A stretch of DNA of 64,000 bases from a virus. The stretch lies in the IMG/VR virus record IMGVR_UViG_3300044620_001243, one strand, 5' to 3'. The notes beneath the pieces are model-generated. The model worked only from the letters and a program-made list of their open reading frames with translations, had not been told where the DNA came from and did not search any database. This document shows, piece by piece, positions 34,726-61,015 of the stretch; the first letter of the stretch is position 1; each line of letters starts with the position of its first letter. A program made the position numbers and the translations under genes.

Positions 34726-35382
34726 ATGAAACTAATTTTAGAAAAAGACCAAAGATTATTTTTTACTAGTGATACCCACTACAATCACTCTAATATTTGT
34801 AGGGCAACTACAAAATGGGAGGACAGTTATGATGCCACTCGTGATTTTAAATCTTTAAGTCACATGAACGACAGTATTGTTCAGAATATTAATGATTTGG
34901 TAAAAGAAAATGATGTTTTAATCCACATGGGAGATTGGTCATGGGGTGGATTTGAATATATTGAAGAATTTCGAAAAAGGATTGTTTGTAAAAACGTTCA
35001 CTTAGTTTTTGGAAACCATGATGAACATATTAAAAAAAATACAGAAAACATTCAAGATATATTCACATCAACTCATGATTATTTACATTTGGATGTTAGA
35101 CAACCTTCCTCAACCAACAAAGGGTCAGTAAATAAGTTTGAATTTATTTGTATGCACTATCCTATTGCTAGTTGGGATGGTTTGTACCACGGTACAATTC
35201 ATTTACATGGTCACACACATCTAACTCCTAACTCTAGAATTTCACAAGGAAAAGCAATGGATGTTGGTGTAGATGGTAACGAGTATAAACCTTTACTTAT
35301 GCAAGAGATTATTGTTATCATGGGAAATAGAGAAATAAATCACCTTTGTTTACCAAAAGACCGTAACGAAAAAAGAATTTGA
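34726..35382 (+). CDS. calcineurin-like metallophosphoesterase
   Basis: SDTHYNH, MGDWSWG, FGNHDEH, MHYP, LHGHTH motif series. Confidence 0.75.
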   Translation: MKLILEKDQRLFFTSDTHYNHSNICRATTKWEDSYDATRDFKSLSHMNDSIVQNINDLVKENDVLIHMGDWSWGGFEYIEEFRKRIVCKNVHLVFGNHDEHIKKNTENIQDIFTSTHDYLHLDVRQPSSTNKGSVNKFEFICMHYPIASWDGLYHGTIHLHGHTHLTPNSRISQGKAMDVGVDGNEYKPLLMQEIIVIMGNREINHLCLPKDRNEKRI

Positions 35383-39550: not shown

Positions 39551-39576
39551 GGGAAGAATTGTCTTCCCTTTTTTTT
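39551..39576 (+). terminator. rho-independent terminator
   Basis: GGGAAGA-ATTG-TCTTCCC followed by TTTTTTTT, 25 nt after the SPFH stop. Confidence 0.65.
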
Positions 39577-39601
39577 GTTTGGTATTTTAAAATTTATTTC
39601 G

Positions 39602-39609
39602 TATATTTA
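39602..39609 (+). promoter_or_regulatory. -7 box TATATTTA
   Basis: Directly after terminator 39551-39576 and 4 nt before ATG 39614. Confidence 0.4.
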
Positions 39610-39613
39610 CACT

Positions 39614-40333
39614 ATGAAAACCGTATTCATCGGCGATATTCACGGACGTTCCATTTGGAAAGAAATTGTAGAACAGGAAAAACCTGATAGGGTTATTTTT
39701 GTCGGAGACTATTTCGACTCACTTGATATTCCAGGTATTGACCAAATTCATAATTTTAAAGAAATCATTCACCACAAAAAAACAAGTGGAATTGAGGTTG
39801 TACTGTTGGTAGGTAATCACGATTATCATTATATGGATATGGGTGAAACTTACAGTGGATTTCAACCTGCTCTAAAATTTGATATTGGGCAGTTACTCAA
39901 AGAAAATATGGAACATTTACAAATGGCACATTCATTTGATAATTTCCTTTGCACCCACGCTGGTGTATCTTCGGTGTTTATGAATGATAATTTTAGAGAT
40001 AGTTGGGATTGCGATAATTTAGTTGAAAAACTGAATGAAACATTTAAATATTCTCCATTCATTTTTAAGTTCAATGGTTTTAATCCATATGGGGATAATG
40101 AAACACAATCACCTATTTGGATTAGGTTGAATTCATTGAGAAGTTCAAATAACAAACGAGGTAAAGATGGAATTAAAAAGCAATTTATTCAAGTGTTTGG
40201 ACACACCCAAGTTAAAGAAATTGATTTGGTTGGAATGGCGAAATTTTTAGGTGGTAGATATATTATGATTGATGCTTTACCATCCCGTCAATACCTAATT
40301 TACAATGGAGAAATTAAAGTAGGAAAAGTGTAA
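39614..40333 (+). CDS. Ser/Thr phosphatase-type metallophosphoesterase
   Basis: VFIGDIHGR, VGDYFD, VGNHD, THAG, GHT motifs; start moved to ATG 39614 downstream of promoter. Confidence 0.7.
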   Translation: MKTVFIGDIHGRSIWKEIVEQEKPDRVIFVGDYFDSLDIPGIDQIHNFKEIIHHKKTSGIEVVLLVGNHDYHYMDMGETYSGFQPALKFDIGQLLKENMEHLQMAHSFDNFLCTHAGVSSVFMNDNFRDSWDCDNLVEKLNETFKYSPFIFKFNGFNPYGDNETQSPIWIRLNSLRSSNNKRGKDGIKKQFIQVFGHTQVKEIDLVGMAKFLGGRYIMIDALPSRQYLIYNGEIKVGKV

Positions 40334-41586: not shown

Positions 41587-41725
41587 AGTCAGATGGCGAA
41601 ATGTAGCCGCTATTTGGGTAAAACAGTTTAACACGAGACGCGAACCTCACACAAAGCCTGATAATAACCAAATGAAAGTGCGAAGTACAGTAACACTTAT
41701 ACGGGTTCGACTCCCGTTCTGACTG
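41587..41725 (+). ncRNA. tRNA-Leu-like shell RNA 1 (divergent copy)
   Basis: AGTCAGA-TG-GCGAAATGTAGCCGC ... ACGGG-TTCGACT-CCCGT-TCTGACT-G; 90-nt insert with ATTTGG/CCAAAT stem around 51 nt, plus AAGTG/CACTT arm. Confidence 0.55.
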
Positions 41726-42184: not shown

Positions 42185-42194
42185 ATTTAACAAC

Positions 42195-42271
42195 AGGGAT
42201 GTATCCCCTCATGCTTATACCATGTAGAAAGGGTAATTGGTGACATATGAGTTCGAGTCTCATCTTCCCTA
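42195..42271 (+). ncRNA. atypical tRNA-like element lacking a D arm (candidate UAU anticodon loop)
   Basis: Acceptor AGGGATG/CTTCCCT (6 of 7 bp), T arm ATGAG-TTCGAGT-CTCAT, hairpin CATG-CTTATAC-CATG at positions 16-30, no foldable D arm; 77 nt. Confidence 0.4.
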
Positions 42272-42300
42272 CAATTCAAAAATCAAATTAAAAAAAAACC

Positions 42301-44439: not shown

Positions 44440-44604
44440 ATGCAACCAAAAGAATCAAAAACAAATACCCATTTTCAATTAAGTTTGATAAAATCTCTTT
44501 TAAGGATATTAGGATGTATTTATCTATTCTTTGGGTGTACAAGTATGTTTGTAATTATTTTCATATTTGCAGAAATTCTTGGAATTTTAGAAGAAATTTT
44601 GTAG
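44440..44604 (+). CDS. small membrane protein
   Basis: 54 aa from ATG 44440; C-terminal TM helices. Confidence 0.35.
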   Translation: MQPKESKTNTHFQLSLIKSLLRILGCIYLFFGCTSMFVIIFIFAEILGILEEIL

Positions 44605-44628
44605 TTTGAATTTTTTTTCGTATATTTG
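44598..44628 (+). promoter_or_regulatory. Bacteroidota-type promoter at the head of the RNA array
   Basis: TTTG, 19 nt, TATATTTG; tRNA-Met starts at 44654. Confidence 0.55.
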
Positions 44629-44653: not shown

Positions 44654-44727
44654 AGCGGGGTGGTGGCAGATGGTAGCCCGCCAGGCTCATAACCTGGAGG
44701 TCGTAGGTTCGAGTCCTACCCCCGCAA
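44654..44727 (+). tRNA. tRNA-Met (CAU), initiator-like
   Basis: Hand-folded cloverleaf colinear with E. coli tRNA-fMet (AGCGGGG..CCAGG-CTCATAA-CCTGG-AGGTC-GTAGG-TTCGAGT-CCTAC-CCCCGCA-A); A1/A72 mismatch; one bulged U in the D stem; starts about 25 nt after the -7 box at 44621-44628. Confidence 0.75.
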
Positions 44728-44791
44728 CCGTATAGTTTTTGTTCTTTGACATCTTGGGAATTAAAAGTAAAAGTCGAGAGACTTAAAAATT

Positions 44792-44901
44792 AGTCAGGTG
44801 GCGGAATTGGTAGACGCAAGTGAGAATAGTAATTGCGCTGATGTAGCGGCAGATGCAGTAAGTTATTATTCATACAGGTTCGAGTCCTGTCCTGACTACC
44901 A
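44792..44901 (+). ncRNA. tRNA-Leu-like shell RNA 2
   Basis: Consensus ends (AGTCAGGTGGCGGAATTGGTAGACGC ... ACAGGTTCGAGTCCTGTCCTGACTACCA); 56-nt insert forms a rod GAATAGTAA/TTATTATTC + TTGC/GCAG + GCTG/CGGC; no 5-7-5 anticodon arm. Confidence 0.6.
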
Positions 44902-45008
44902 AAGAAACAAGTAAAACGCAAACGCACAGTCCCTTGATGCATCAGGTGAGGCGCACACTGTATACTGGATGACCTCTGTTTCTTTTTTAATCAGTCAGGT
45001 GGCGGAAT
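44871..45008 (+). repeat. 138-bp exact duplication, copy 1 (T arm + acceptor + spacer + next 5' half)
   Basis: Identical by eye to 45339-45476. Confidence 0.8.
44902..44992 (+). ncRNA. structured 91-nt spacer RNA candidate (copy 1 of 2)
   Basis: AAAGAAACA (from 44901, sharing the terminal A of the preceding CCA)/TGTTTCTTT 9-bp closing stem, internal ACAGT/ACTGT and GAGG/CCTC pairings, palindrome TGATGCATCA; identical copy at 45370-45460. Confidence 0.3.
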
Positions 45009-45101
45009 TGGATAGACGCATTGAGGAATCTAAACTTGGTAGCATTTGTTAGATTTAATAGTAATCCTCCTTCCTTACAGGTTCGACTCCTGTCCTGACT
45101 A
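44993..45101 (+). ncRNA. tRNA-Leu-like shell RNA 3
   Basis: Consensus ends; 57-nt insert with GAGGA/TCCTC and ATCTAA/TTAGAT stems. Confidence 0.6.
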
Positions 45102-45267
45102 CGACAGTTAGCAGATAATACTTGGTAGTTCTTGTAACGTCTGACTATGCGTGAGGTGGTTTTATAACTTTCCACCAGCTGGTCCAAAACTAAAAGTTAA
45201 TACAGGTTTAATAACGGGGTGAAGGAAAGTCTAACTAACAAGTACTTCACTACCTACTGTAAAAATT

Positions 45268-45369
45268 AGTCAGGTGACGAAATTGGTAGACGTGCCACGA
45301 ATAAAACTAAGTGGTGGAGAAACAGCTTTCAGGCACTCCATACAGGTTCGAGTCCTGTCCTGACTACCA
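45268..45369 (+). ncRNA. tRNA-Leu-like shell RNA 4
   Basis: Ends AGTCAGGTGACGAAATTGGTAGACGT ... CCTGACTACCA; 48-nt insert with CCAC/GTGG and GGAG/CTCC hairpins. Confidence 0.6.
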
Positions 45370-45476
45370 AAGAAACAAGTAAAACGCAAACGCACAGTCC
45401 CTTGATGCATCAGGTGAGGCGCACACTGTATACTGGATGACCTCTGTTTCTTTTTTAATCAGTCAGGTGGCGGAAT
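45339..45476 (+). repeat. 138-bp exact duplication, copy 2
   Basis: Identical by eye to 44871-45008; offset 468 bp. Confidence 0.8.
45370..45460 (+). ncRNA. structured 91-nt spacer RNA candidate (copy 2 of 2)
   Basis: Identical to 44902-44992. Confidence 0.3.
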
Positions 45477-45558
45477 GGTAGACGCACTGGACAGGCGATG
45501 CATTTAAAACAGAAATAAGCCCAGTCGGTACTTACAGGTTCGAATCCTGTCCTGACTA
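45461..45558 (+). ncRNA. tRNA-Leu-like shell RNA 5
   Basis: Consensus ends; 48-nt insert with ACTGG/CCAGT + GGC/GCC around a 22-nt loop. Confidence 0.6.
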
Positions 45559-45926
45559 CAAATCTTAGGAGTAATTAACCTAAGACTGAGAGGTTCGAAA
45601 CTCTCGATTGGCTATGGTGTAATGGGCACAGAGAAACGGAGTACGAAAGGGGTTACGGGAATTTTCCCGCAAACATCAGAAACGGGACTCAGGATTATGG
45701 TTCGAATCCATATTAGTCAACAAGCCGTCTTTTTTTCTTGTCCGCCGTGGACGTGGATTGTTGAGACGTAAAAGTAACAATCGATTGATTAGAGAACGGT
45801 AGGATACAGGTTCACTAGACGAAGGTAGAAGTTTTTTTTTGATAGATGGGTTTGAGTTCTTTATAACAACAAACCAACTATAATTCAGTAGGGACAAATG
45901 GGAGCGGCTTACTCCAGTCCCGAAAT

Positions 45927-46085
45927 AGTCAGGTGGCGGAATTGGTAGACGCTATGAAATCATGTTTTAAGATTGAACGGGTAGGCAGACGTAACATATA
46001 GGTAAAAGAGTGTTATCGCCGAATACACTTATAAGGGTCCTATGAAAAAACTTCAATCATACAGGTTCAAGTCCTGTCCTGACTA
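45927..46085 (+). ncRNA. tRNA-Leu-like shell RNA 6 (largest insert)
   Basis: Consensus ends (T loop TTCAAGT); 108-nt insert with GATTGAA/TTCAATC closing stem and nested helices. Confidence 0.55.
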
Positions 46086-46328
46086 CACGTTCCGAAACAG
46101 ACAACGGATAGTTCCACTATGAACGATGAGAAACAGGGTGATGTCCTGTATTAGTTATCGCCTCCCGAATGCGGTCGGGATAGGTTGACCACCTAAACAT
46201 CAGCAATGTGAACGGTCTATTTCTAACTCACCTACGTTTGTAAGACAACATAGAAGTGACGAGACGGGAAACTCGTCGTGAGGACATCCAAGACACCTGT
46301 AAGTTGGATAAATTAGGGTGTTATTTTT

Positions 46329-46451
46329 AGTCAGGTGTGGGTAAAAATGCGCTAACTGGAAACCCACTGAAAGCGAAAGCAAAGTCGAGGTCTAAATGCG
46401 CACTATGGCCGAGGTAATGGCGAGATACAGGTTCAAGTCCTGTCCTGACTA
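46329..46451 (+). ncRNA. tRNA-Leu-like shell RNA 7 (D arm replaced)
   Basis: AGTCAGG-TG, then GTGGGT/ACCCAC hairpin instead of the D arm, GC-GAAA-GC hairpin, consensus T arm and CCTGACT-A. Confidence 0.5.
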
Positions 46452-46596
46452 CAAAGACAATGGTTTTCCCCATTCAACGGATGTCGACAATCCAGAATGG
46501 AATCGGAATTCAGCACCCTCAGCCGAGGCGCCTCGTAAAACTACGATTAAGCTGTTAAGATTGGAGCGAGACGGGTACTCCATCATTGTCTTATTT

Positions 46597-46668
46597 GGTC
46601 GGTTCATCTAGAGGTTAGGATACAAGATTTTCATTCTTGTCACATGGGTTCGATTCCCATACCGACTA
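46597..46668 (+). tRNA. tRNA-Glu (UUC)
   Basis: GGTCGGT/ACCGACT acceptor, D arm ATCT-AGAGGTTA-GGAT, anticodon arm CAAGA-TTTTCAT-TCTTG, T arm ATGGG-TTCGATT-CCCAT, A73. Confidence 0.85.
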
Positions 46669-46843
46669 CCTTGGAGGTATAGGGGTAAACCCTTGAGGCG
46701 AAGTACAAGCCATAGTCACTGAACTTAAACTGACCTCCAACCAAATTAGAAGTGTCGCAATACGCGTTTCAATCTAATTGATAGACGTATCAATGAAGAT
46801 GTTCGAGGGTGAAAATCCCAAGCTTCTAATCCTCCATTCTTAG

Positions 46844-46938
46844 TGTTATGTGGTTAAAACACGTTAACTCTTACATCGCCTGATTAGCGCTAATCCGAAT
46901 GTAAGACGAGTAAGTTGGTTCGAATCCAACAGAATGGA
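46844..46938 (+). ncRNA. tRNA-like RNA of a second lineage with rod-like anticodon arm
   Basis: Acceptor CCATTCT/AGAATGG (7 bp), D arm GTGT-TATGTGGTTAAA-ACAC, T arm GTTGG-TTCGAAT-CCAAC, A73; 50-nt rod TTACAT/ATGTAA + palindrome GATTAGCGCTAATC. Confidence 0.55.
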
Positions 46939-47216
46939 CAATGAGTAAGAGATACTCAGAGTCTTTGGTCTAAGACTTAAACAATAGACTCGCAGAATGT
47001 CTACGGCGTGAGTGGGACATCATGGGAACAAAGAAGAGTCACACACCTTCTCCCAGTAGTGTTGACAGGTTTTTATGTGGTAAGACACTAATGAAAAAGA
47101 CTCGTTCTATGGGGTACTTATCTGGAGTATCAAACAAGTGTGAGTGATATGGTTCTCGAACAGACAGAGAAACCCGTTAAAATCTACCCGTCTGGAATCT
47201 CAGGATGGGGAAACAT

Positions 47217-47319
47217 AGTCAGGTGGCGGAGTGGGCTAACGCTAACTTGGAAGAGTCTGAGGAGTGGTAACCAAGTACCTATACTCTGATGACCGCAGGT
47301 TCGAATCCTGTCCTGACTA
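47217..47319 (+). ncRNA. tRNA-Leu-like shell RNA 8
   Basis: AGTCAGG-TG-GCGGAGTGGGCTAACGC ... GCAGG-TTCGAAT-CCTGT-CCTGACT-A; 52-nt insert with ACTTGG/CCAAGT stem; loop AGAGT complementary to downstream ACTCT. Confidence 0.6.
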
Positions 47320-47337
47320 CAAAAATAAATTAAAATT

Positions 47338-47598
47338 ATGTTTATAGAAAGATTTTTTAACCCCTATGTGTCATCTCACGAAAGGGTATTATATGAGAAT
47401 AAAGAAGCAATTGAACATTGTTTGAAATATCATACATGGATTAGACATTATTCATTTGAAGGTGATGAATATATCAAAAATGTTAATGGTAAATTAGTTT
47501 GGAATGATGGTAGTAAAGTTGATAAAAGAAAATTACCTAAAAAAGGAAAAGGATGGGGCAGATATTCAAGTGAACTTTATAATTTGTGTTCTTTTTAA
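47338..47598 (+). CDS. hypothetical protein (cassette between tRNA-like elements)
   Basis: 86 aa ORF starting 18 nt after element 47217-47319 and ending 7 nt before element 47606. Confidence 0.5.
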   Translation: MFIERFFNPYVSSHERVLYENKEAIEHCLKYHTWIRHYSFEGDEYIKNVNGKLVWNDGSKVDKRKLPKKGKGWGRYSSELYNLCSF

Positions 47599-47605
47599 AT
47601 TAAAT

Positions 47606-47751
47606 AGTCAGGTGGCGGAATTGGTTAGACGCTGTAAAAGTAAGATATGGGAATTGTGCACTCGGTAAACCTACGCACAAGGCTTAGATAGTTGTGCAAC
47701 AGCGGAAAGTCTTACAAAACTATCTTACAGGTTCGAATCCTGTCCTGACTG
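47606..47751 (+). ncRNA. tRNA-Leu-like shell RNA 9
   Basis: Consensus ends (G73); 94-nt insert with AAGATA/TATCTT and TTGTGC/GCACAA stems. Confidence 0.55.
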
Positions 47752-47764
47752 CAAAATTAAAGAT

Positions 47765-47908
47765 ATGTTTAGAACATTAAATTATATTTGGAAATTGTTT
47801 TGGAAAAGACCTAGTAGAAGAGTATTTTTTATATTTTTTAGAATGCTAAAAACGGAAATTAAGTGTTTAATGTTGACTGGATACTCAACAGATGAATTAC
47901 TAAATTAG
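47765..47908 (+). CDS. hypothetical small protein (cassette between tRNA-like elements)
   Basis: 47-codon ORF found by eye; its TAG stop overlaps the first 2 nt of element 47907. Confidence 0.3.
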   Translation: MFRTLNYIWKLFWKRPSRRVFFIFFRMLKTEIKCLMLTGYSTDELLN

Positions 47909-48033
47909 TCAGGTGGCGGAATTGGTAGACGCACGATTTATTGTTTAACGATGTGGCTCAATGTCCTAATGGATGAGAGAAAATAAACAGAGAAATATAC
48001 CACATACAGGTTCGAATCCTGTCCTGACTACCA
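47907..48033 (+). ncRNA. tRNA-Leu-like shell RNA 10
   Basis: Consensus ends with encoded CCA; 73-nt insert with crossing complementarities TTTATT/AATAAA and ATGTGG/CCACAT. Confidence 0.6.
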
Positions 48034-48085
48034 AGTTAACCCACTAAGACTAGAAACGGGTGACACCTCGGAAAGACGAGGACAT

Positions 48086-48170
48086 AGTCAGGTGGCGGAA
48101 TGGATAGACGCGGCCCTATCAGGGGTAGAGGCGAAAGAAACTCATACAGGTTCGAATCCTGTCCTGACTA
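48086..48170 (+). ncRNA. tRNA-Leu-like shell RNA 11 (tRNA-sized, non-canonical anticodon loop)
   Basis: 85 nt; best arm CCCTA-TCAGGGG-TAGAG has a C/A mismatch and C at position 33; looks like a damaged Leu(CAG) loop. Confidence 0.5.
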
Positions 48171-53524: not shown

Positions 53525-54256
53525 ATGGATAAAGATAAATTAAAAAATATCATTACCAGAATTGGTCAAATAAATCCAAAATATGAATTGGAAAATATTC
53601 TGCCTCAATCGCCAAAATTAATTAAATTAATGCCTAAATTAATTCAACTCATGGGTGACCCATTAGAAGATGCTCAATTGGCTGCAGTTAAAAAAGATGG
53701 TTTAACAATCGAATATATCGTTAAAGGTGGAATCACCCCATCAGAAGATGTTCAATTGGCTGCAGTTAACGAAAATGGTTATGCAATCCAATATATCATT
53801 AATGGTGGAATCGTCCCATCAGAAGGTGTTCAATTGGCTGCAGTTAACAAAAAGGGTTATGCAATCTCAAATATCATTAAAGGTGGAATCGTCCCATCAG
53901 AAGATGTTCAATTGGCCGCAGTTAACGAAGAGGGTTATGCAATAGGATATATCATTGATGGTGGAATCGTCCCATCAGAAGGTGTTCAATTGGCCGCAGT
54001 TAATAATAATGGTTATGCAATCCAACATATCATTAATGGTGGAATCGTTCCATCAGAAGGTGTTCAATTGGCCGCAGTTAACAAAAAGGGTTTATCAATC
54101 GAATATATCATTGATGCCGGAATCATTCCATCAGAAGATGTTCAATTTGGAGCAGTTAATTATAATGGTTTATCAATCCAATATATCATTGATGCTGGAA
54201 TCACCCCATCAGAACGTGTAAAAGAACTTGCTCGTTCCAAGGGTGTTCAAATATAA
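53525..54256 (+). CDS. DUF4116-like repeat protein, paralog 1 of 3
   Basis: Seven roughly 30-aa repeats GGI.PSEDVQLAAVN.NGYAIQYII; shared N- and C-termini with the next two genes. Confidence 0.6.
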   Translation: MDKDKLKNIITRIGQINPKYELENILPQSPKLIKLMPKLIQLMGDPLEDAQLAAVKKDGLTIEYIVKGGITPSEDVQLAAVNENGYAIQYIINGGIVPSEGVQLAAVNKKGYAISNIIKGGIVPSEDVQLAAVNEEGYAIGYIIDGGIVPSEGVQLAAVNNNGYAIQHIINGGIVPSEGVQLAAVNKKGLSIEYIIDAGIIPSEDVQFGAVNYNGLSIQYIIDAGITPSERVKELARSKGVQI

Positions 54257-54261
54257 ATAAC

Positions 54262-54897
54262 ATGGATAAAGATAAATTAAAAAATATCATTACCAGAATT
54301 GGTCAAATAAATCCAAAATATGAATTGGAAAATATTCTGCCCCAATCACCAAAATTAATTCAATTCATGGATAATCCATCAGAAGATGTTCAATTGGCCG
54401 CAGTTAAAAAAGATGGTTTAACAATCTATTATATCATTGAAGCCGGAATCGTCCCATCTGAAGATGTTCAATTGGCTGCAGTTAATAATAATGGTTCATC
54501 AATCTATCAAATCATATATGATGCTGGAATCACCCCATCAGAAGATGTTCAATTGGTTGCAGTTAAAAAAGTGGGCGACTTAATCTATGATATCATTAAA
54601 GTCGGAATAACCCCATCAGAAGATGTTCAATTGGCTGCGGTTAATAATAATGGTTCATCAATAGGATATATCATTAACGGTGGAATCACCCCATCAGAAG
54701 ATGTTCAATTGGCCGCTGCTAATCAAAATGGTAGGGTAATCCAATATATCATTAAAGCTGGAATCACCCCATCAGAAGATGTTCAATTGGCCGCAGTTAA
54801 TAATAATGGTTATGCAATCCAACATATCATTAACGCCCGAATCACCCCATCAGAACGTGTAAAAGAACTTGCTCGTTCCAAGGGTGTTAATATATAA
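54262..54897 (+). CDS. DUF4116-like repeat protein, paralog 2 of 3
   Basis: Same architecture; N-terminus MDKDKLKNIITRIGQINPKYELENI identical. Confidence 0.6.
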   Translation: MDKDKLKNIITRIGQINPKYELENILPQSPKLIQFMDNPSEDVQLAAVKKDGLTIYYIIEAGIVPSEDVQLAAVNNNGSSIYQIIYDAGITPSEDVQLVAVKKVGDLIYDIIKVGITPSEDVQLAAVNNNGSSIGYIINGGITPSEDVQLAAANQNGRVIQYIIKAGITPSEDVQLAAVNNNGYAIQHIINARITPSERVKELARSKGVNI

Positions 54898-54902
54898 GTT
54901 AT

Positions 54903-55616
54903 ATGGATAAAGATAAATTAAAAAATATCATTACCAGAATTGGTCAAATAAATCCAAAATATGAATTGGAAAATATTGTGCAGCAAGCGCCACAATTAAT
55001 TCAATTCATGGATAATCCATCTGAAGAAATTCAATTGGCCGCGGTTGAAAAAGATGGTAAATATATAAAAAATATTATTGAAAGTGGAATCAAACCATCA
55101 GAAGATGTTCAATGGACAGCTGTTAATCAAGGTGGTCAGTCACTTTATTTTATCCTTGAAGCCGGAATCGTCCCATCTGAAGATGTTCAGTTGGCAGCGG
55201 TTAGAAGTAGAGGTTCGGCAATCCAATTTATCATTGAAGCTGGAATCATTCCATCAGAAGATGTTCAATGGTTTGCGGTTAACGAAAATGGTTATGTAAT
55301 CCAAGATATCATTGATGCCGGAATCACCCCATCAGAACGTGTTCAATTGGCCACAGTTAATTATAATGGTTTGTTAATCAAATATATCATTGATGTCGGA
55401 ATCACCCCATCAGAACGTGTTCAATTGGCTGCTGTTAATCAAAATGGTTTGTCAATCAAAGATATCATTGAAGCCGGAATCGTCCCATCTGAAGATGTTC
55501 AGTTGACTGCAGTTAGAAGTAGAGGTTCGGCAATCCAATTTATCATTTATAATGGTGGAATCAAACCATCAGAACGTGTAAAAGAACTTGCTCGTTCCAA
55601 GGGTATTAATATATAA
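54903..55616 (+). CDS. DUF4116-like repeat protein, paralog 3 of 3
   Basis: Same architecture; C-terminus PSERVKELARSKG.NI shared. Confidence 0.6.
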   Translation: MDKDKLKNIITRIGQINPKYELENIVQQAPQLIQFMDNPSEEIQLAAVEKDGKYIKNIIESGIKPSEDVQWTAVNQGGQSLYFILEAGIVPSEDVQLAAVRSRGSAIQFIIEAGIIPSEDVQWFAVNENGYVIQDIIDAGITPSERVQLATVNYNGLLIKYIIDVGITPSERVQLAAVNQNGLSIKDIIEAGIVPSEDVQLTAVRSRGSAIQFIIYNGGIKPSERVKELARSKGINI

Positions 55617-55621
55617 ATAAC

Positions 55622-56194
55622 ATGGAAAAAAATCTAAATGAAGAGATTTCAAGAATAAAATCAATAATCAATTTTATGAATGAAAATGAATTGCCCAAAA
55701 ATTCTGGAGACTTAATAAGGATGTTACCTGAAAAGTTAAAAGAATTATTTTTCAATCAATGGAAAGCAAAACAAAACCCAAAATGGCACCCCGAAGGTAA
55801 CACATTGAAACATATTCTTGTTGTAATTAAAAGGGCTTATCATTATTATCCTGATGACCCCAATATGATTATGGCGGCGTTGTTTCATGATTTGGGGAAA
55901 ATTGATACATACAACATTAACCCAAAAACGGGGGAACCAACTGCGTATGGTCATGAGAACAAGTCAGTGCAATATGTGGAAGAATTCAAAGATTGGATTC
56001 AGAGTTTTGAGGGAACGAACGTGGAAGAGATTAAATATTTGGTTAAAAACCATATGAAGGTAAAACCATCCACATGGGACTCAATGAGGGATATTAAGAA
56101 AGAACCGATACAATCACACCCCGCATTTGATAAATTAATGGGTTTTACAAGTAAATTGGATGGTGGGGGGATTAATTTGGAAAAAAATATTTAA
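55622..56194 (+). CDS. HD-domain phosphohydrolase (CCA-enzyme HD-domain-like)
   Basis: NPKWHPEGNTLKH and LFHDLGK (H...HD) resemble the HD domain of bacterial CCA-adding enzymes. Confidence 0.6.
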   Translation: MEKNLNEEISRIKSIINFMNENELPKNSGDLIRMLPEKLKELFFNQWKAKQNPKWHPEGNTLKHILVVIKRAYHYYPDDPNMIMAALFHDLGKIDTYNINPKTGEPTAYGHENKSVQYVEEFKDWIQSFEGTNVEEIKYLVKNHMKVKPSTWDSMRDIKKEPIQSHPAFDKLMGFTSKLDGGGINLEKNI

Positions 56195-56211: not shown

Positions 56212-56243
56212 TTTGGAAGTATGGTATCTTTTACTTATCTTTG
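56212..56243 (+). promoter_or_regulatory. Bacteroidota-type promoter
   Basis: TTTG, 20 nt, TATCTTTG. Confidence 0.5.
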
Positions 56244-56249
56244 TAGAAG

Positions 56250-56369
56250 ATGAAAACAAATCTATTCATGGAAATATTAATTTATATTGGGTTTATCTTG
56301 TGGTTTTTTGCGGGATATAATATGGGTGTGTGTGACCAAAGAATGAAAAATTTATTTAAAAATAAATAA
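56250..56369 (+). CDS. hypothetical small membrane protein
   Basis: 39-codon ORF found by eye, downstream of promoter 56212-56243. Confidence 0.3.
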   Translation: MKTNLFMEILIYIGFILWFFAGYNMGVCDQRMKNLFKNK

Positions 56370-56376
56370 ATCCAAA

Positions 56377-56631
56377 ATGGGAACCGAAGTAAAATTGTTT
56401 GTCAAATACAATGAAATTGACGGTAGGTCATATTTTGATTTAAGTGTTGGTGATGGTAATAAAGACATATCTTTACGTGATATTCGTGCAATATTAACTG
56501 GTGCCGTTGCTATGACCATTAGATTATCTGAAAATGATGTCGAGGCAATGACAGAGGTTATAAACTTATTGAATGAACAATTTGTGAGTCCTCATGCATT
56601 CGAAGATGGTAAATTAAAAAAAATAATATGA
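56377..56631 (+). CDS. hypothetical protein
   Basis: 84 aa ORF. Confidence 0.45.
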   Translation: MGTEVKLFVKYNEIDGRSYFDLSVGDGNKDISLRDIRAILTGAVAMTIRLSENDVEAMTEVINLLNEQFVSPHAFEDGKLKKII

Positions 56632-56819
56632 TATTACTTAGACAACAAAAAGTATTGGTGACTGGTGATGAATACGCCGGCGATATTCAGAACAAGATTG
56701 ACAAAATCTTGGAAGATGGTTGGTTCATTGTATCTGTAACAGCACAACACATATCAACAGGTAGTAGTAGTTATCTAAGAGGAGGTTATCTCATCGTGTT
56801 TGAAAGAACCATTAGTTAA
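56628..56819 (+). CDS. hypothetical protein
   Basis: 63 aa ORF, ATGA overlap. Confidence 0.4.
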   Translation: MILLRQQKVLVTGDEYAGDIQNKIDKILEDGWFIVSVTAQHISTGSSSYLRGGYLIVFERTIS

Positions 56820-56830
56820 ATCCAAAACCG

Positions 56831-57448
56831 ATGCAAAAAGTTATTTTCTTGGATATTGATGGGGTAATGAACTCACATATTTTCTATGAACAAAGGCATA
56901 GAAAAAGATGGTTGAAATGGAGAACTTATTATTTTTTGATTAGAAGATTTTTGGGGATTAAATCCAAATCCGTGAGTCTTGCTAACCACAAAACACCCAA
57001 ATCCCATTGCACATACCAACACCAATTTAAAAGATTAAAAGAAGAGACTTGTCAGCAAAAATGGAAATGGCTTGCTAATTTCTGCAACGAGACTGGAACT
57101 AAAATTTGTGTATCATCTGTGTGGAGATTTCATTTTGGAAATGAAGAATCGGTTATACCCCTGTGGTGGGAACGAGCACTGATTGATTTGGGTTTCAACG
57201 AAGGAACATTTGTTGGTATCACCGACAGATTGGGAATGAGAGGAGAAGAAATCAAGGATTGGCTTCAAAAAAATCAGGAAGTTCAGGAATATGCAATTTT
57301 AGATGATGACTCTGATATGCTACCTGAACAGATGGATAAATTTTATCATTGTGATGGATATTTTGGTCTTTCTCCCAATCACTTATATCGTATCCAAAGA
57401 GCCTTCTCGGGTAAAAGTAAATATGGACATTTGAATAAAACCGTATAA
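56831..57448 (+). CDS. HAD-like phosphatase (recalls the HAD domains of 'Swiss-army-knife' RNA-repair proteins)
   Basis: VIFLDIDGVMNS motif I; ILDDDSD motif near the C-terminus. Confidence 0.45.
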   Translation: MQKVIFLDIDGVMNSHIFYEQRHRKRWLKWRTYYFLIRRFLGIKSKSVSLANHKTPKSHCTYQHQFKRLKEETCQQKWKWLANFCNETGTKICVSSVWRFHFGNEESVIPLWWERALIDLGFNEGTFVGITDRLGMRGEEIKDWLQKNQEVQEYAILDDDSDMLPEQMDKFYHCDGYFGLSPNHLYRIQRAFSGKSKYGHLNKTV

Positions 57449-57467
57449 ATTTATAATTCAAAATCGA

Positions 57468-58595
57468 ATGAGACACGAAAAATTGATTGAAAAACATTTA
57501 GGTATTAACACACCTGATTGGGTTAAAGAAAAAGTAAATAATGCCATAGATGAAGCACTTGGTTATAATTTGAAAAAATCTGAAGAACTCACACCATACA
57601 TTGAATACTACTCCAACGGAAATGTACTTGTCAAAGGACAAAAGAACTCCAAAGGACAAGAAGAAGGTCTTTGGGAGTGGTTCTATAAAAACGGAAACAT
57701 CCGTATGAGAATCCCATACAAAGAGGGTAAGGAAGATGGAATTGAGGAGGTTTTCTATGAAAACGGAAACATCAGTATGAGAATCCCATACAAGGAGGGT
57801 AAGATGGATGGAATTCGGGAGTGGTTTGATAAACAATGGAACATCAAAGCAAGAATCCCATTCAAAGAGGGTAAGGAGGATGGAATTGCGGAGTGGTTTG
57901 ATGAACAGGGAAACATCACCGAAACCCGTGTATGTAAAAATGGTGAAGTAATTGAAATAACTAAACCCGAACTCACACCCCACATCGAATACTACTCCAA
58001 CGGGAACGTAAGGGTCAAAGGACAAAGGAATTCCAAAGGACAACGAGAAGGTATTTGGGAGTGGTTTTTTGAGAACGGAAACATCCTATGTAGAACCCCG
58101 TACAAAGAGGGTAATATGGATGGTATTGAGGAGTTGTTCTATGAAAACGGAAACACCAAATGGAGAATCCCATACAAAAATGGCGTGGAGGATGGAGTTC
58201 AGGAGTGTTTTGATGAACAGGGAAACATCACCGCGACCAGTCATTGGAAAGATGGTGAAGTAATTGAAGAAACTAAACCCGAACTCACACCCCACATTGA
58301 ATACTACCCCAACGGAAATGTATGGTTCAAAGGTCAAAAGAACTCCAAAGGACAACGAGAGGGGATTTGGGAGATTTTTTGGATGAACGGAAACATCGAA
58401 TGGAGAACTTCTTACAAAGAGGGTAAGGAGGATGGTATTGATGAGGGGTTCTATTCAGACGGAAACATCCGTTGTAGAACCCCATACAAAGAGGGTAAGG
58501 AGGATGGAATTGAGGAGCGGTTTGATGAACAAGGAAACATCACCGAAACCCGTCATTGGAAAGACGGGGAAATAATTGAAGAAACTAAACACTAA
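57468..58595 (+). CDS. MORN/YwqK-type repeat protein
   Basis: 375 aa; about 12 tandem roughly 23-aa repeats in three blocks, each starting ELTP.IEYY.NGN. Confidence 0.7.
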   Translation: MRHEKLIEKHLGINTPDWVKEKVNNAIDEALGYNLKKSEELTPYIEYYSNGNVLVKGQKNSKGQEEGLWEWFYKNGNIRMRIPYKEGKEDGIEEVFYENGNISMRIPYKEGKMDGIREWFDKQWNIKARIPFKEGKEDGIAEWFDEQGNITETRVCKNGEVIEITKPELTPHIEYYSNGNVRVKGQRNSKGQREGIWEWFFENGNILCRTPYKEGNMDGIEELFYENGNTKWRIPYKNGVEDGVQECFDEQGNITATSHWKDGEVIEETKPELTPHIEYYPNGNVWFKGQKNSKGQREGIWEIFWMNGNIEWRTSYKEGKEDGIDEGFYSDGNIRCRTPYKEGKEDGIEERFDEQGNITETRHWKDGEIIEETKH

Positions 58596-58598
58596 ACT

Positions 58599-59222
58599 AT
58601 GACACACAACATCATTAAAACAGACAACTATCTTTTTATTGGTTCTGATGATGACATTAGAAGAGGATTGTTTTATTGTGTAAGAAGGAAAAATATTTTC
58701 CAAGATGAGGGTGAAGATATTCATTGTTGTATGGGAGATATCAGAATTATGGCCCACTTACCACTCAACAACTCACCTGTTCTTGAAGGTATAGACTTAT
58801 TACCCGCTTTAGAGGATGGTGTTGAGAAGTTGGCTGAGGAATTTAAAAGTTCATATAAAAAAGTTGGAGTTACTGATTATGAGGTTTCATCATTTATTGT
58901 AGGCTACAACAAAGCCAAAGAGAAGTACAAGTACACAGAAGAAGATTTGAGAGAAGCTTTATTTGAAGTATTAAATACATCAAAAGAAGAATGTTGTGCA
59001 ACTCATACGAAAGATAGTATTGTTCGTAGAGTAATCAAATCCCTCCAACAACCAAAGATACCTGATGCTTTTGAGTGTGAGATGGTAACTATGAACAAAG
59101 GTTATACTGAAGAATCTGACTATCCGTATCAACAGTGTGATATACCAAAAATCACAACCAACTCACAAGGTCTCACGCAGTGGGTTGGTAGCTATATCTT
59201 TAAAACCAAAAATCAAAACTAA
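58599..59222 (+). CDS. hypothetical protein
   Basis: 207 aa ORF. Confidence 0.5.
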   Translation: MTHNIIKTDNYLFIGSDDDIRRGLFYCVRRKNIFQDEGEDIHCCMGDIRIMAHLPLNNSPVLEGIDLLPALEDGVEKLAEEFKSSYKKVGVTDYEVSSFIVGYNKAKEKYKYTEEDLREALFEVLNTSKEECCATHTKDSIVRRVIKSLQQPKIPDAFECEMVTMNKGYTEESDYPYQQCDIPKITTNSQGLTQWVGSYIFKTKNQN

Positions 59223-59232
59223 ATTAAAAATT

Positions 59233-59427
59233 ATGCAAAATTTAATCTCAACCGAATTATACGAAGTAACCGAAAAACTTTACAGAGATATGAACCCAAA
59301 TGGCAGGATGTCAGAACCACCGAGTAGTGTCTATGTTACTGTTATTGAAAAGTGGTATCCCGAATACCGGCAATCAAATTCCGAATTGAGTTTCTACGAA
59401 TGGTGTAAAAAAAATAAAAGTAATTAA
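59233..59427 (+). CDS. hypothetical protein
   Basis: 64 aa from ATG 59233 (track ORF 59137 overlaps upstream gene). Confidence 0.4.
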   Translation: MQNLISTELYEVTEKLYRDMNPNGRMSEPPSSVYVTVIEKWYPEYRQSNSELSFYEWCKKNKSN

Positions 59428-59429
59428 AT

Positions 59430-59549
59430 ATGATAGGACTTATTATTTTCGGATTGTTGATTTTTTGGATTATTATAACGGAAGGAAATATTTTTCTTCG
59501 CGATAATGACGATGATTGGGACGGAACAAATCAAAGTATAGATTTGTGA
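59430..59549 (+). CDS. hypothetical small membrane protein
   Basis: 39-codon ORF found by eye (MIGLIIFGLLIFWIIIT...). Confidence 0.3.
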   Translation: MIGLIIFGLLIFWIIITEGNIFLRDNDDDWDGTNQSIDL

Positions 59550-59590
59550 TTATTTTCAAAAATAATTTTTTTTTTTGAACTTGTAGTTAG

Positions 59591-59598
59591 TATATTTA
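59591..59598 (+). promoter_or_regulatory. -7 box TATATTTA
   Basis: 22 nt upstream of ATG 59621. Confidence 0.4.
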
Positions 59599-59620
59599 CA
59601 CCATCAAATCAAGATTAAAA

Positions 59621-59875
59621 ATGTACGAAGCAAAATACGTAATCGTTGAAGGGAGTGGAATCATCTTTTCCGCAGCAATCCAACACAAAGACATGGTTGG
59701 TTATAATGAAAAATGCGAAGGTGCTGGGTTCGTAAGGTTTGCCGTTGAAAAAGATAGCTACGGCGATGACATCATCGTTGCCCAATGCTACGGCGAGTCC
59801 ATTTCATTGGGTATCGAATCTCGACCAGAAAAAGATTCAAAAATTCTAACGCGTCAAATCACCAATCCTTTTTGA
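59621..59875 (+). CDS. hypothetical protein
   Basis: 84 aa ORF downstream of the -7 box at 59591-59598. Confidence 0.5.
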   Translation: MYEAKYVIVEGSGIIFSAAIQHKDMVGYNEKCEGAGFVRFAVEKDSYGDDIIVAQCYGESISLGIESRPEKDSKILTRQITNPF

Positions 59876-59901
59876 ATGTAAAACTAAAAAATATTAAAAC
59901 G

Positions 59902-60105
59902 ATGATAACAATTTCAACTCTATTCATTTTGCTGTACTCATACAGTCTGTATAAAATTAGAAAAGACTCTGGGTCTTGGAAAGAATTCGACCCATTTGGG
60001 AGTAGTCTATTTGTCTCGTTGGTATTCATATTCGGTACATCAGCAATCATAGTATGTGTGTTAGGAATTCTAGGTTATGTGGTACAAAATAATTTAATAC
60101 CCTAA
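59902..60105 (+). CDS. small membrane protein
   Basis: 67 aa from ATG 59902; two TM helices. Confidence 0.4.
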   Translation: MITISTLFILLYSYSLYKIRKDSGSWKEFDPFGSSLFVSLVFIFGTSAIIVCVLGILGYVVQNNLIP

Positions 60106-60117
60106 ATAATACAAAAC

Positions 60118-60225: not shown

Positions 60226-60239
60226 AACTCTTCAACCAC

Positions 60240-60947: not shown

Positions 60948-60965
60948 TATTCCAAGAAATCTTTA

Positions 60966-60992: not shown

Positions 60993-61015
60993 AAAAAAAA
61001 CAAAAAACAAAACAA

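Follow-up and report, generated by a model that had tools for sequence, protein, structure and literature searches.

A family of tRNA-Leu-like RNA genes with copy-specific inserts in place of the anticodon arm in a virus genome

The window analyzed here is a 64,000-nt stretch of viral DNA (IMG/VR record IMGVR_UViG_3300044620_001243). It contains 16 + strand elements, which we call shells, with common 5' and 3' ends and differing centres. These elements and the features around them are as follows.

41587–41725, + strand: shell copy 1, divergent (acceptor AGTCAGA/TCTGACT, T stem ACGGG/CCCGT, G73, centre ~88 nt)
44598–44628, + strand: promoter motif of the Bacteroidetes type (TTTG-N-TAnnTTTG), shortly before the RNA array
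44654–44729, + strand: canonical tRNA-Met(CAT), first gene of the array (ARAGORN, Infernal)
44792–44898, + strand: shell copy 2, centre of 56 nt forming a long hairpin, CCA encoded
44871–45008, + strand: 138-nt perfect direct repeat, second copy at 45339–45476
44993–45101, + strand: shell copy 3, centre 58 nt
45268–45366, + strand: shell copy 4, centre 48 nt, D stem ACG/CGT, CCA encoded
45461–45558, + strand: shell copy 5, centre 47 nt, RF00005 score 43.9 bits
45927–46085, + strand: shell copy 6, longest centre (108 nt)
46329–46451, + strand: shell copy 7, acceptor and T arm kept, D arm replaced
46597–46670, + strand: canonical tRNA-Glu(TTC), within the array
47217–47319, + strand: shell copy 8, centre 52 nt, entire element 97% identical in the relative L010
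47606–47751, + strand: shell copy 9, centre 95 nt, G73, two small ORFs on either side
47907–48030, + strand: shell copy 10, centre 73 nt, CCA encoded
48086–48170, + strand: shell copy 11, centre of 34 nt forming two short hairpins, conserved in L010
48279–48353, + strand: canonical tRNA-Lys(TTT), last tRNA of the array
60960–60993, + strand: shell relic, a decayed 3' half immediately past an ORF stop, with the usual A-rich leader after it (sequence reading)
61221–61243, + strand: relic of a shell 3' end, TCGAATCCTGACTGCAA, with 5 nt deleted between the CCTG repeats (sequence reading)
61412–61501, + strand: shell copy 12, tRNA-Leu(UAA), the sole decoding-competent shell, variable arm GAAA-capped
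61686–61768, + strand: shell copy 13, centre of two short hairpins with 3-nt and 4-nt loops
61974–62096, + strand: shell copy 14, centre 72 nt, between small ORFs
62329–62435, + strand: shell copy 15, centre 56 nt, ORF at 62455 starting 19 nt downstream
62951–63028, + strand: shell copy 16, the shortest, centre 27 nt, RF00005 score 46.7 bits with the anticodon arm skipped

The 5' end of a shell reads AGTCAGG-TG-(Leu-type D arm) and the 3' end ACAGG-TTCGAAT-CCTGT-CCTGACT-A. Shells in the window are 77–158 nt long, with centres of about 27–108 nt, and many centres form two hairpins, recalling an anticodon arm plus a long variable arm. Searching with the 24-nt 3' end at ≤3 mismatches gave 15 matches on the + strand, compared to 0 expected from shuffled sequences, and a 17-nt D-arm core gave 7 matches at the same threshold, compared to 0.04 expected. 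The 16th copy, at 41587, is a variant in which the acceptor and T-stem changes are both compensated; hence, all 16 starts listed in the first-pass annotation are real. So are its three encoded CCA ends, which follow position 73 at 44792, 45268 and 47907 and in no other shell. A 7-bp acceptor stem and A73 are typical, with G73 in the shells at 41587 and 47606; at 61686, an A at position 72 breaks the first acceptor pair. Derivation of the shells from tRNA-Leu is supported by the credible Leu(UAA) at 61412 and by the bacterial Leu-type D arm, which we take to be identical to that of E. coli tRNA-Leu. The 61412 copy, 97–100% identical in loci L112, L072 and L080, is likely the founder type.

The next + strand promoter motif after the one at 44598–44628 lies at 48871, suggesting that 44.65–48.5 kb is a single transcription unit. 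The motif search found none within the RNA array and none in the region 56243–64000. No shells lie in the window's first 41 kb (1–41 kb). A tRNA-like element that is not a shell is located at 46834.

Do the shells decode? With default settings, ARAGORN called 61412 as Leu(taa) and made two implausible shell calls in the window, ‘Pro agg’ at 48086 and ‘Gly acc’ at 61686, in line with the earlier view that 61412 alone has a credible anticodon arm. Lack of a 5-bp/7-nt anticodon stem-loop is a property of 15 of the 16 window copies and ∼99% of the wider family. One could suppose that these are ordinary decoding tRNAs with introns or odd anticodon arms missed by the tools. When introns are allowed, ARAGORN does assign anticodons in 10/16 shells, and likewise in the 46834 element, and the RF00005 gathering threshold is cleared by 61412 and seven other shells. 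However, the proposed introns sit at non-canonical positions (e.g. upstream of the assigned anticodon), and what Infernal scores is the acceptor, D and T arms, local ends being used to bypass the anticodon arm. Across the wider family, default ARAGORN called 42 of 181 elements; most of these calls have abnormal loops or an implausible A34 anticodon, and Leu(taa) is the only one seen repeatedly. In a strict test for a canonical anticodon arm, 1 of 179 family elements passed, versus 1.5 expected by chance, and an anticodon-like helix closing the centre was not enriched over shuffles. As the first-pass annotation had argued, the centres (27–108 nt) fall short of the size of group I introns, and they matched no intron or other Rfam family (E ≤ 5 at 41–49 kb; E ≤ 1 at 61.3–63.1 kb). 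These data make hidden decoding tRNAs scarcely credible.

The shells are widespread beyond the window, to which the earlier description had been confined. At least 120 IMG/VR contigs contain the exact 3' 23-mer, yielding 181 distinct elements of 68–269 nt, as do 18 MAG contigs, mostly Bacteroidota; no match was found among 50,697 deposited phage genomes. The carriers are most likely phages of freshwater Bacteroidota. AGTCAGG, exact or with one base changed, is found in nearly all tRNA-like bodies >95 nt, whereas other tRNAs are of canonical length, which indicates that the expansion is specific to the tRNA-Leu shell scaffold.

The arms bear the marks of selection at the RNA level. Deviations from consensus kept pairing in 19 cases and broke it in 10 for the acceptor; the corresponding numbers for the T stem were 41 and 6. 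One-sided changes compatible with G·U pairing are among the stem changes, and D-stem types covary (GCG/CGC, GTGT/ACAC, GCTT/AAGC, GCA/TGC, TCC/GGG). Core tertiary nucleotides (U8, A14, A15, G18G19, U48, T54–A58) are 86–100% conserved. The compensated stems and conserved core bear out the idea that the acceptor/T top half and elbow are maintained. Orientation matches that of neighboring ORFs in 155 of 164 decidable copies (95%). In the 5' leader, A is found at −4 in 69% and at −2 in 66%, and T at −1 in 82%; at the 3' end, A73 is found in 92% and C74 in 97%, position 75 is A/T, and position 76 is A in 70%. The corresponding values for 188 canonical tRNAs of the same contigs are 62, 60, 69, 70 and 98%, A/T, and 70%. 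Based on stem covariation, conserved core nucleotides, co-orientation and tRNA-like flanks, the shells are RNA genes. Four roles had been put forward for them, as transcript-processing punctuation, tRNA-scaffolded small RNAs, Leu-chargeable adaptors or decoys; the flanks support tRNA-type processing, and none of the four is proven.

One simple possibility is that shells act purely as punctuation, like t-elements, cutting polycistronic transcripts and setting mRNA ends. Only the half recognized by RNase P and RNase Z would then matter, and the centre would be functionless filler. Consistent with this, the flank context is identical to that of real tRNAs, an ATG ORF (≥40 aa) begins within 120 nt downstream of 101/187 copies (most often 10–30 nt away), and promoter motifs are absent inside the array and the 61–63 kb operon. 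Moreover, folding of the inserts is only weakly stronger than that of shuffles (mean z of −0.59, with just 6% below −2), and no common motif was found among them.

Filler of 30–130 nt, however, would be expected to be lost or to drift to genomic AT content. The inserts are instead GC-enriched, at 40.9% compared to 35.8% for the locus (P = 7e-13), or 43% versus 32% in the window alone. They are conserved like their flanks, with a homolog in another contig for 37/154 inserts, compared to 32/154 and 26/154 length-matched flanks. In 26 cross-contig homologous pairs, inserts are 88% identical and flanks ∼61% (random baseline 56 ± 5), a comparison biased by the fact that these pairs were picked by insert similarity. 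Base pairs of the inserts in ortholog clusters were invariant in 125 cases and showed one-sided change in 7, compensatory change in 6 and breakage in 1. Based on conservation relative to flanks, GC enrichment and compensatory changes, each centre looks like a gene-specific conserved domain. These data argue against the first-pass suggestion that the anticodon half is free or deliberately diversified. A search for insert targets found none within the window or in deposited phages. Two further points bear on punctuation. For RNase P and RNase Z, an acceptor/T-arm minihelix without D arm and tertiary core is a sufficient substrate, yet shells conserve both. Many intergenic regions are shell-free, and relics are tolerated; those at 60960 and 61221, together with the shell-free 1–41 kb, suggest that punctuation is not generally required. 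We regard shells as punctuation alone as rather unlikely.

Shells are also sites of rearrangement. Relative L010 differs from the window by insertions and deletions of whole modules, with breakpoints inside shells. The 138-nt repeat covers the 3' half of one shell, a 95-nt spacer and the 5' end of the next, placing duplication breakpoints inside shells as well. The elements could therefore be mainly a DNA-level repeat, their arms serving as recombination linkers or being targeted by a site-specific enzyme. This would shuffle small genes and RNA modules, as with mobile regulatory cassettes and boundary sequences in other phages, and the likeness to tRNA would reflect only ancestry. Besides the L010 breakpoints and the perfect repeat across two shell halves, this would account for relic 3' halves at ORF boundaries and for arm sequences that are nearly invariant where structure alone would permit change, although invariance of the 3' part is partly by construction, as family loci were gathered by the exact 23-mer. 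A mere DNA repeat would not explain compensated and G·U-compatible stem changes, a strand that follows the genes in 95%, or tRNA-like leaders and trailers. No integrase or homing endonuclease was found adjoining the shells; GIY-YIG genes lie 400–3500 nt from elements in other loci, and none is in the window. Recombination at repeats is, moreover, an expected by-product of any multi-copy gene. We therefore view a primarily DNA-level role as very unlikely.

Many counter-defence and RNA-repair genes lie in the window, among them a T4 Rnl1-type RNA ligase (32068–33363), metallophosphoesterases and Tad3. Published work describes defences that cleave the anticodon arm or the variable loop, as well as phage tRNAs able to escape such defences (PMC12445682, PMC13096335). 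Given this gene content, shells might be decoys or sponges for host factors that bind the tRNA body, such as tRNA-cleaving or -modifying defence nucleases, toxins, LeuRS, EF-Tu or the CCA-adding enzyme, thereby shielding real tRNAs or rewiring the host. High copy number (16 in one phage) and conservation of the full L-shape core fit such a role. But a decoy acting by dosage needs no different conserved insert in each copy, and nucleases specific for the anticodon loop cannot be decoyed by elements without one. Decoy function is, in our estimation, quite unlikely.

Compared to canonical bacterial tRNA-Leu (class II, RF00005), the shells have the same 7-bp acceptor, A73, Leu-type D arm and TTCGAAT T arm, but their lengths extend to 158 nt in the window and 269 nt in other contigs, and they mostly lack the anticodon stem-loop. 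The claim that no such family had been described largely holds, in that we found no published description of an anticodon-less tRNA-Leu-like family, but stable RNAs in the T4 tRNA cluster offer a partial precedent. Of the known systems, T4 species 1 RNA and plant mitochondrial t-elements come nearest. T4 species 1 and 2 RNAs (rnaC, rnaD), whose function is still unknown (PMC3014915), are likewise small stable RNAs encoded beside real tRNAs. In rnaC, a perfect T arm (CCGGG-UUCGAAU-CCCGG) is followed by an 8-bp acceptor-like helix, and long helices occupy the place of the remaining tRNA; its match to Rfam tRNA models is not significant (E = 0.76). Unlike shells, these RNAs are single copy, not derived from tRNA-Leu, without different-insert paralogs and confined to T4-like coliphages. 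No D-arm match was found in them, and sequence kinship with shells is limited to the generic T loop. Plant mitochondrial t-elements are tRNA-like structures that, like the tRNAs of the mitochondrial punctuation model, lie between genes of polycistronic transcripts; recognition by RNase P and RNase Z sets the ends of neighboring RNAs (PMC1920247). Shells are similarly co-oriented between ORFs or RNAs with tRNA-type leaders and trailers, and would be cleaved in the same way. In contrast to t-elements, they retain a complete D arm and tertiary core, have conserved GC-rich inserts, and belong to a single, expanding family of paralogs descended from one founder tRNA.

tmRNA also encloses a large non-tRNA insert within a tRNA-like acceptor/T-arm domain. 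Shells differ in having U3–A70 rather than G3·U70, a D arm and inserts of 27–108 nt (>200 nt in tmRNA), and in lacking both a tag reading frame and a pseudoknot ring. Infernal found no match to RF00023 in the window. Phages related to the window's phage encode tmRNA. Engineered tRNA scaffolds, polycistronic tRNA-gRNA arrays, MALAT1 mascRNA and the tRNA-miRNA units of gammaherpesvirus 68 all use a tRNA body to process and stabilize an unrelated RNA, which sits either where the anticodon would be or next to the tRNA. These are laboratory constructs or eukaryotic/viral Pol III units. A natural family in bacterial viruses, with many inserts in one tRNA scaffold, appears to be new, as far as we could find.

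On balance, we favor the view that shells encode small RNAs shaped and processed like tRNAs, which do not decode and which carry gene-specific inserts, with excision also cutting the polycistronic transcripts. They would have arisen by duplication of a phage tRNA-Leu(UAA). The retained acceptor, D and T arms, core nucleotides, and tRNA-like leader and trailer make it most likely that an RNase P cut at the 5' end and the 3' tRNA-maturation pathway release shells from long polycistronic transcripts, with CCA completed after excision. The product would be a stable L-shaped RNA with a copy-specific insert in place of the anticodon and variable domain, the insert itself being under purifying selection. 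We infer the processing itself and this stability, along with any leucylation and whatever the inserts may bind. As in tRNA punctuation, excision would also free the RNAs and small-gene mRNAs on either side from one another. In the DNA itself, the almost identical arms act as recombination points at which modules are duplicated, deleted and swapped.

A 24-nt consensus of the 3' end, ACAGGTTCGAATCCTGTCCTGACT, has 15 plus-strand matches in the window at up to three mismatches, and none in 100 shuffles. The Leu-type D-arm core, GCGGAATTGGTAGACGC, has seven matches versus 0.04 expected. Joining each 5' start of the first-pass annotation to the next 3' end delimited 16 tRNA-Leu-derived elements of 77–158 nt (termed shells and named by start position), in which common acceptor, D and T arms surround a copy-specific insert. 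The 16-member family with common ends that had been read from the sequence is thus borne out, its most divergent copy (41587) being a compensated variant (acceptor AGTCAGA/TCTGACT, T stem ACGGG/CCCGT). The 7-bp acceptor is fully paired in 15 of the 16 copies, the exception being 61686, with A1 and A72 unpaired, and every copy has a T arm with a 5-bp stem and a 7-nt TTCRANY loop. The D arm is missing or altered in 46329 and 41587. A73-CCA is encoded in three copies (44792, 45268 and 47907), the number originally reported. Against the Rfam tRNA model (RF00005), eight shells scored above the gathering threshold of 29 bits, at 33.5–46.7 bits, and the others below it. The passing scores come from the three conserved arms alone: in the Infernal alignments, the acceptor, D and T arms were matched and the anticodon arm was bypassed via local ends, in agreement with the first-pass reading. 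Shell centres and spacers matched no Rfam family.

Outside the window, the exact 23-mer CAGGTTCGAATCCTGTCCTGACT occurs in at least 120 IMG/VR contigs. Multiple copies are present at 40 or more of these loci, with eight in L010, the closest relative. Among the matches listed, there are 181 distinct elements of 68–269 nt; because the loci were collected with the exact 23-mer CAGGTTCGAATCCTGTCCTGACT, the invariance of their 3' arm is partly by construction. A search of 185,579 species genomes found CAGGTTCGAATCCTGTCCTGACT in only 18 MAG contigs, so it is phage sequence and no host tRNA gene. These contigs, sampled from lakes, rivers and effluent, are mostly of Bacteroidota (Chitinophagia, Sediminibacterium, Flavobacterium, Saprospirales). 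Large arrays of ordinary tRNA genes are present in related contigs, some of which also have a tmRNA. None of 50,697 deposited phage genomes, T4 included, contains shell-like sequence, and no syntenic relative was found in IMG/VR via the ORF upstream of the array. Literature searches returned no published description of such elements; a large structured-RNA screen of IMG/VR names tRNA-like candidates without describing this family (PMC10690425).

The tRNA body is under selection as an RNA fold. Across the family, deviations from consensus kept pairing in 19 cases and broke it in 10 in the acceptor, and kept it in 41 and broke it in 6 in the T stem. A D stem was identifiable in 159 of the 179 elements, with covarying types GCG/CGC, GTGT/ACAC, GCTT/AAGC, GCA/TGC and TCC/GGG. 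Conservation extends to the core and elbow (U8, 99%; A14, 93%; A15, 93%; U48, 86%; T54–A58, 95–100%), and G18G19 is kept. Orientation is the same as that of neighbouring ORFs in 155 of 164 decidable copies, and shells are intergenic, often lying 10–30 nt upstream of ORFs. Their flanks show A at −4 (69%) and −2 (66%), U at −1 (82%), A73 (92%), C74 (97%), A/U at 75 and A at 76 (70%), compared to 62, 60, 69, 70 and 98%, A/U, and 70% at the same positions in 188 non-shell tRNAs of the same contigs. As this leader and trailer profile equals that of the ordinary tRNAs, the shells share the processing context of real tRNAs. The trailer of the canonical tRNAs themselves is strongly conserved and unusual: among the 188 in the window and its relatives (L001–L120), C74 is encoded in 98% and C75 in only 11%, the sequence reading N73-C-(A/U)-A, which hints at a particular 3' maturation route.

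In E. coli, the LeuRS identity set consists of A73 and the tertiary core, with A15–U48 and the placement of G18G19. The shells are compatible with this set (A73 92%, A15 93%, U48 86%, GG kept), although that of the host may differ.

A strict test for an anticodon arm (a stem of five pairs directly 3' of the D arm, closing a 7-nt loop with U33 and a purine at position 37) was passed by one of 179 elements, versus 1.5 in shuffled centres. In the window, default ARAGORN called 61412 as Leu(taa), 48086 as 'Pro agg' and 61686 as 'Gly acc', the last two being implausible; 61412 is the only copy there with a credible anticodon arm, as the first-pass annotation had it. Across the family, 42 of 181 elements were called. 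Most of these calls have an A34 anticodon or an abnormal loop, and Leu(taa) is the only one seen repeatedly.

One could suppose that the shells are tRNAs with introns, either group I or bulge-helix-bulge. ARAGORN in intron mode does report anticodons for 10 of the 16 shells, and for a non-shell element at 46834, with insertions at non-canonical positions that mark these calls as fits to noise. No anticodon-stem halves flank the inserts, and no intron family matched at E ≤ 5. The centres, at 27–108 nt, are also too small for a group I core, a point made from the outset. We therefore consider the intron explanation very unlikely.

The Leu(UAA) copy at 61412 is 97–100% identical in three otherwise unrelated contigs and looks like the founder. 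Certain relatives retain a CUUAA loop together with an enlarged variable region, which suggests how the anticodon-less forms could have arisen from tRNA-Leu. Such enlargement of the centre is specific to the AGTCAGG scaffold: of the tRNA-like bodies exceeding 95 nt, 86 have AGTCAGG itself and most of the remaining 21 differ from it by one base, and the other tRNAs in the loci are of canonical length. LeuRS is known to disregard the anticodon, and class II tRNAs to accommodate a long variable arm; the choice of a Leu scaffold accords with both. An alternative reason could be mere abundance, tRNA-Leu(UAA) being frequent in these AT-rich phages: besides the shells, the loci contain 14 Leu(taa) genes.

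The inserts are very diverse, with 138 of 179 being singletons in an all-against-all search and no shared motif beyond leftover D-arm words. They are weakly more structured than shuffles (mean z −0.59). A closing anticodon-like helix across the insert showed no enrichment over shuffles, and a two-hairpin layout was somewhat commoner (70 versus 47). Insert G+C content is 40.9%, compared to 35.8% in the surrounding genome (P = 7e-13), and 43% versus 32% in the window. A homolog in another contig was found for 37 of 154 inserts and for 32 and 26 of 154 length-matched flanks. Blocks shared between the window and its relative had suggested that inserts turn over faster than flanks, which was not borne out family-wide with lengths matched. 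In 26 cross-contig pairs, inserts are 88% identical and the 100-nt flanks average 61%, against a random baseline of 56 ± 5, a comparison biased by the selection of pairs with homologous centres. The contrast is nevertheless what a conserved small RNA gene shows when its surroundings have diverged, tRNA genes being an example. Predicted insert pairs in ortholog clusters comprise 125 invariant, 7 one-sided, 6 compensatory and 1 broken, and between two of the loci (L011 and L045) one insert hairpin has three consecutive compensated pairs. The GC enrichment, the frequency of homologs, the identity within pairs and the maintenance of base pairing together argue that the inserts are conserved and not neutral filler. 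Hence the first-pass interpretation stands in part: the shared ends, the encoded CCA and the near-absence of anticodon arms hold, and the view that the centres are 'free or deliberately diversified' does not. Antisense targets, also envisaged there, did not emerge, matches of the 16 inserts within the window being only 9–16 nt long (E ≥ 0.14) and deposited phages giving no match. Nor do the inserts look like captured foreign sequence, as a blastn search of the concatenated inserts against 50,697 phage records found nothing at E ≤ 0.1. Pairing of inserts with the downstream translation start was no stronger for the insert's own start than for permuted ones (−9.7 versus −9.6 kcal/mol, P = 0.84).

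All genes of the window lie on the plus strand, and G+C content is ∼32%, with a 43% stretch at 45–47 kb. Features relevant to the setting of the shells are as follows.

8527–9099: ORF matching Tad3, a Type I Thoeris inhibitor (counter-defence; Pfam PF25185, E = 6e-38)
27873–28574, 34726–35382 and 39575–40333: three metallophosphoesterases, two of them resembling the phosphoesterase part of RNA-ligase fusions (phrog_8238)
32068–33363: T4 Rnl1-type RNA ligase
44598–44628, plus strand: Bacteroidetes-type promoter motif TTTG-N17–21-TAnnTTTG, just 5' of tRNA-Met

Because the following plus-strand promoter motif lies only at 48871, the 3.8-kb block downstream of 44598–44628 looks like one transcription unit. 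It contains tRNA-Met, ten shells, tRNA-Glu, tRNA-Lys, conserved spacers and two small ORFs. Five shells in 61412–63028 alternate with small ORFs, and no such promoter motif occurs in that stretch, or anywhere after 56243 in the window. A further shell starts at 41587. The Rnl1-type ligase and the three metallophosphoesterases resemble an RNA repair set, located upstream of the array, and these genes, with the Tad3-like gene, indicate a large-phage region rich in accessory and counter-defence functions. A weak Sen15-like Pfam hit at 54262–54897, nominally a tRNA-splicing endonuclease, is considered spurious; it sits in a family of repeat-protein paralogs that lacks PDB relatives and matches only PHROGs without an assigned function. 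That family consists of four tandem ORFs of ∼190–243 aa (53525–56194) with DUF4116/DRTGG-like repeats. Elsewhere, the thymidylate synthase ORF at 6871–8016 carries a ∼115-aa insertion, since it encodes 381 aa versus 266 positions in the Pfam profile, and the GC-rich segment 13894–15225 (44% versus ∼30%) encodes an LED-repeat protein, with a 410-aa ORF on the opposite strand covering almost the same span.

Shells also leave traces at the DNA level. Blocks shared by L010 and the array are 89–98% identical, and the differences are insertions, deletions and replacements of whole modules, with breakpoints inside shells. Repeats and relics are seen in the window itself.

44871–45008 and 45339–45476: 138-nt perfect repeat, which starts in a shell's T arm, spans a 95-nt spacer and extends into the following shell
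60960 and 61221: decayed shell 3' halves at ORF boundaries

Together with the L010 breakpoints, these features indicate that the conserved arms serve as recombination points. Recombination at repeats is expected of any multi-copy sequence, and we do not consider it the main role of the shells, because their orientation, compensated changes and tRNA-type flanks point to selection on RNA. No integrase or homing endonuclease was found adjoining shells; GIY-YIG ORFs recur in related loci, non-adjacent to shells, and are absent from the window, so an association with homing endonucleases was discarded.

How do the shells compare with known RNAs? With canonical tRNA (RF00005), they share the acceptor stem, discriminator, T arm, D arm with G18G19, and U8/A14, and nearly all of them lack the anticodon arm. 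In tmRNA and YrlA, too, a tRNA-like module is joined to other RNA, but the defining features of both fail here. tmRNA (RF00023) has G3·U70, a tag-peptide frame and pseudoknots, whereas shells have U3–A70 and inserts that are too short; neither ARAGORN nor RF00023 detected a tmRNA in the window. In YrlA (RF02553), the tRNA-like module is enclosed by a Ro/Rsr-binding stem to which both ends of the RNA contribute, whereas the ends of a shell form the acceptor stem itself. The YrlA model gave a single match, overlapping a T arm, at 18.5 bits versus a gathering threshold of 69 (E = 4.9). The nearest phage precedent is T4 rnaC, in which a perfect T arm and an acceptor-like helix surround long helices; it has only the generic T arm and the location in a tRNA cluster in common with shells, and no further homology. 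Both rnaC and rnaD (species 1 and 2) are stable RNAs of the T4 tRNA cluster whose role is not known (PMC3014915). The nearest functional analogy is to the t-elements of plant mitochondria and tRNA punctuation (PMC1920247), where RNase P and RNase Z cut at the element boundaries and thereby define the ends of neighbouring RNAs. For shells, the leader and trailer profile common to them and the 188 ordinary tRNAs supports such cleavage indirectly. Like these, shells are tRNA-like folds between co-transcribed genes on the transcribed strand, and their position is that of t-elements, since 155 of 164 are co-oriented, they are intergenic, and no promoter motif lies inside the units. The shells, then, are tRNA-derived, tRNA-like non-coding RNAs, and what is unusual about them is the combination of one scaffold with many different conserved inserts.

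Other tRNA-like elements without a regular anticodon arm are found in the window.

46834–46938: 105-nt tRNA-like element, acceptor CCATTCT/AGAATGG, with D arm, T arm and a long rod replacing the anticodon arm
∼42190–42275: T-arm-containing tRNA-like element without anticodon arm, imperfect acceptor AGGGATG/CTTCCCT
∼45608–45724: T-arm-containing tRNA-like element without anticodon arm, imperfect acceptor TGGCTA/TAGTCA

The first of these indicates that the design of a tRNA body plus insert is not limited to the Leu scaffold. It is also present in L010, where the T stem GTTGG/CCAAC is replaced by GCTGG/CCAGC, a compensated change, and two changes in the rod retain pairing as G·U. The element at ∼42190–42275 is 82–85% identical in two other contigs (L102 and L055). 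A second long type, of 155–167 nt, was seen on the minus strands of L012 (7997–8151) and L037 (2259–2425), with acceptor TGTCAGG/CCTGACA or the compensated TGTAAGG/CCTTACA and a large insert well conserved between both.

Spacers 46452–46596, 46671–46833 and 48031–48085 fold clearly better than shuffles (z = −2.45, −3.04 and −3.32), the first two with terminal closing stems and the third as two hairpins with no closing stem. They match no Rfam family, and their homologs in other contigs are 75–96% identical. They are candidates for new structured RNAs that would be released when the flanking shells are processed. The spacer that follows shell 45461 begins, at 45559–45610, with hairpins CTTAGG...CCTAAG and GAGAGG-TTCGAAA-CTCTC; both recur in other contigs with fully compensated stems (e.g. 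TTCAGG...CCTGAA and GGAAGG-TTCGAAA-CTTCC).

Based on these comparisons, we propose that shells are transcribed within long precursors and then recognised as tRNAs. RNase P is predicted to cut on the 5' side; U−1 and an A-rich leader fit the preferences of the bacterial enzyme. The tRNA 3' pathway would cut on the other side, followed by CCA completion, and the product, if stable, would be an L-shaped RNA with the copy-specific insert as its long arm. It may be leucylated. Excision of a shell would also sever the precursor between neighbouring RNAs and small-gene mRNAs. A more far-reaching version, which we consider improbable, is that shells form a naturally occurring 'tRNA scaffold' platform, a tRNA body that needs no anticodon, can be charged by LeuRS and is EF-Tu/CCA-competent, on which Bacteroidota phages might express, stabilise and exchange many different small effector RNA domains (e.g. 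decoys or sponges against tRNA-targeting immunity or other host factors), with the arms as recombination sites and the inserts moving as cassettes between phages.

Odd stable RNAs in phage tRNA clusters are an old observation, and T4 species 1 and 2 are unexplained after decades. The shell family provides a large comparative data set, with one scaffold and ∼180 different conserved inserts in at least 120 contigs. It also matters for annotation, as tRNA finders miss shells or report incorrect anticodons for them (Pro(agg) and Gly(acc) in the window, Tyr(ata) in related contigs). If processed and stable, shells would represent a new class of small phage RNA with a tRNA body as its framework. If true, this would bear on natural design rules for biotechnological tRNA-scaffolded RNAs, on the arms race around tRNA-targeting defences, and on how long transcripts are processed in phages of the SD-less Bacteroidota.
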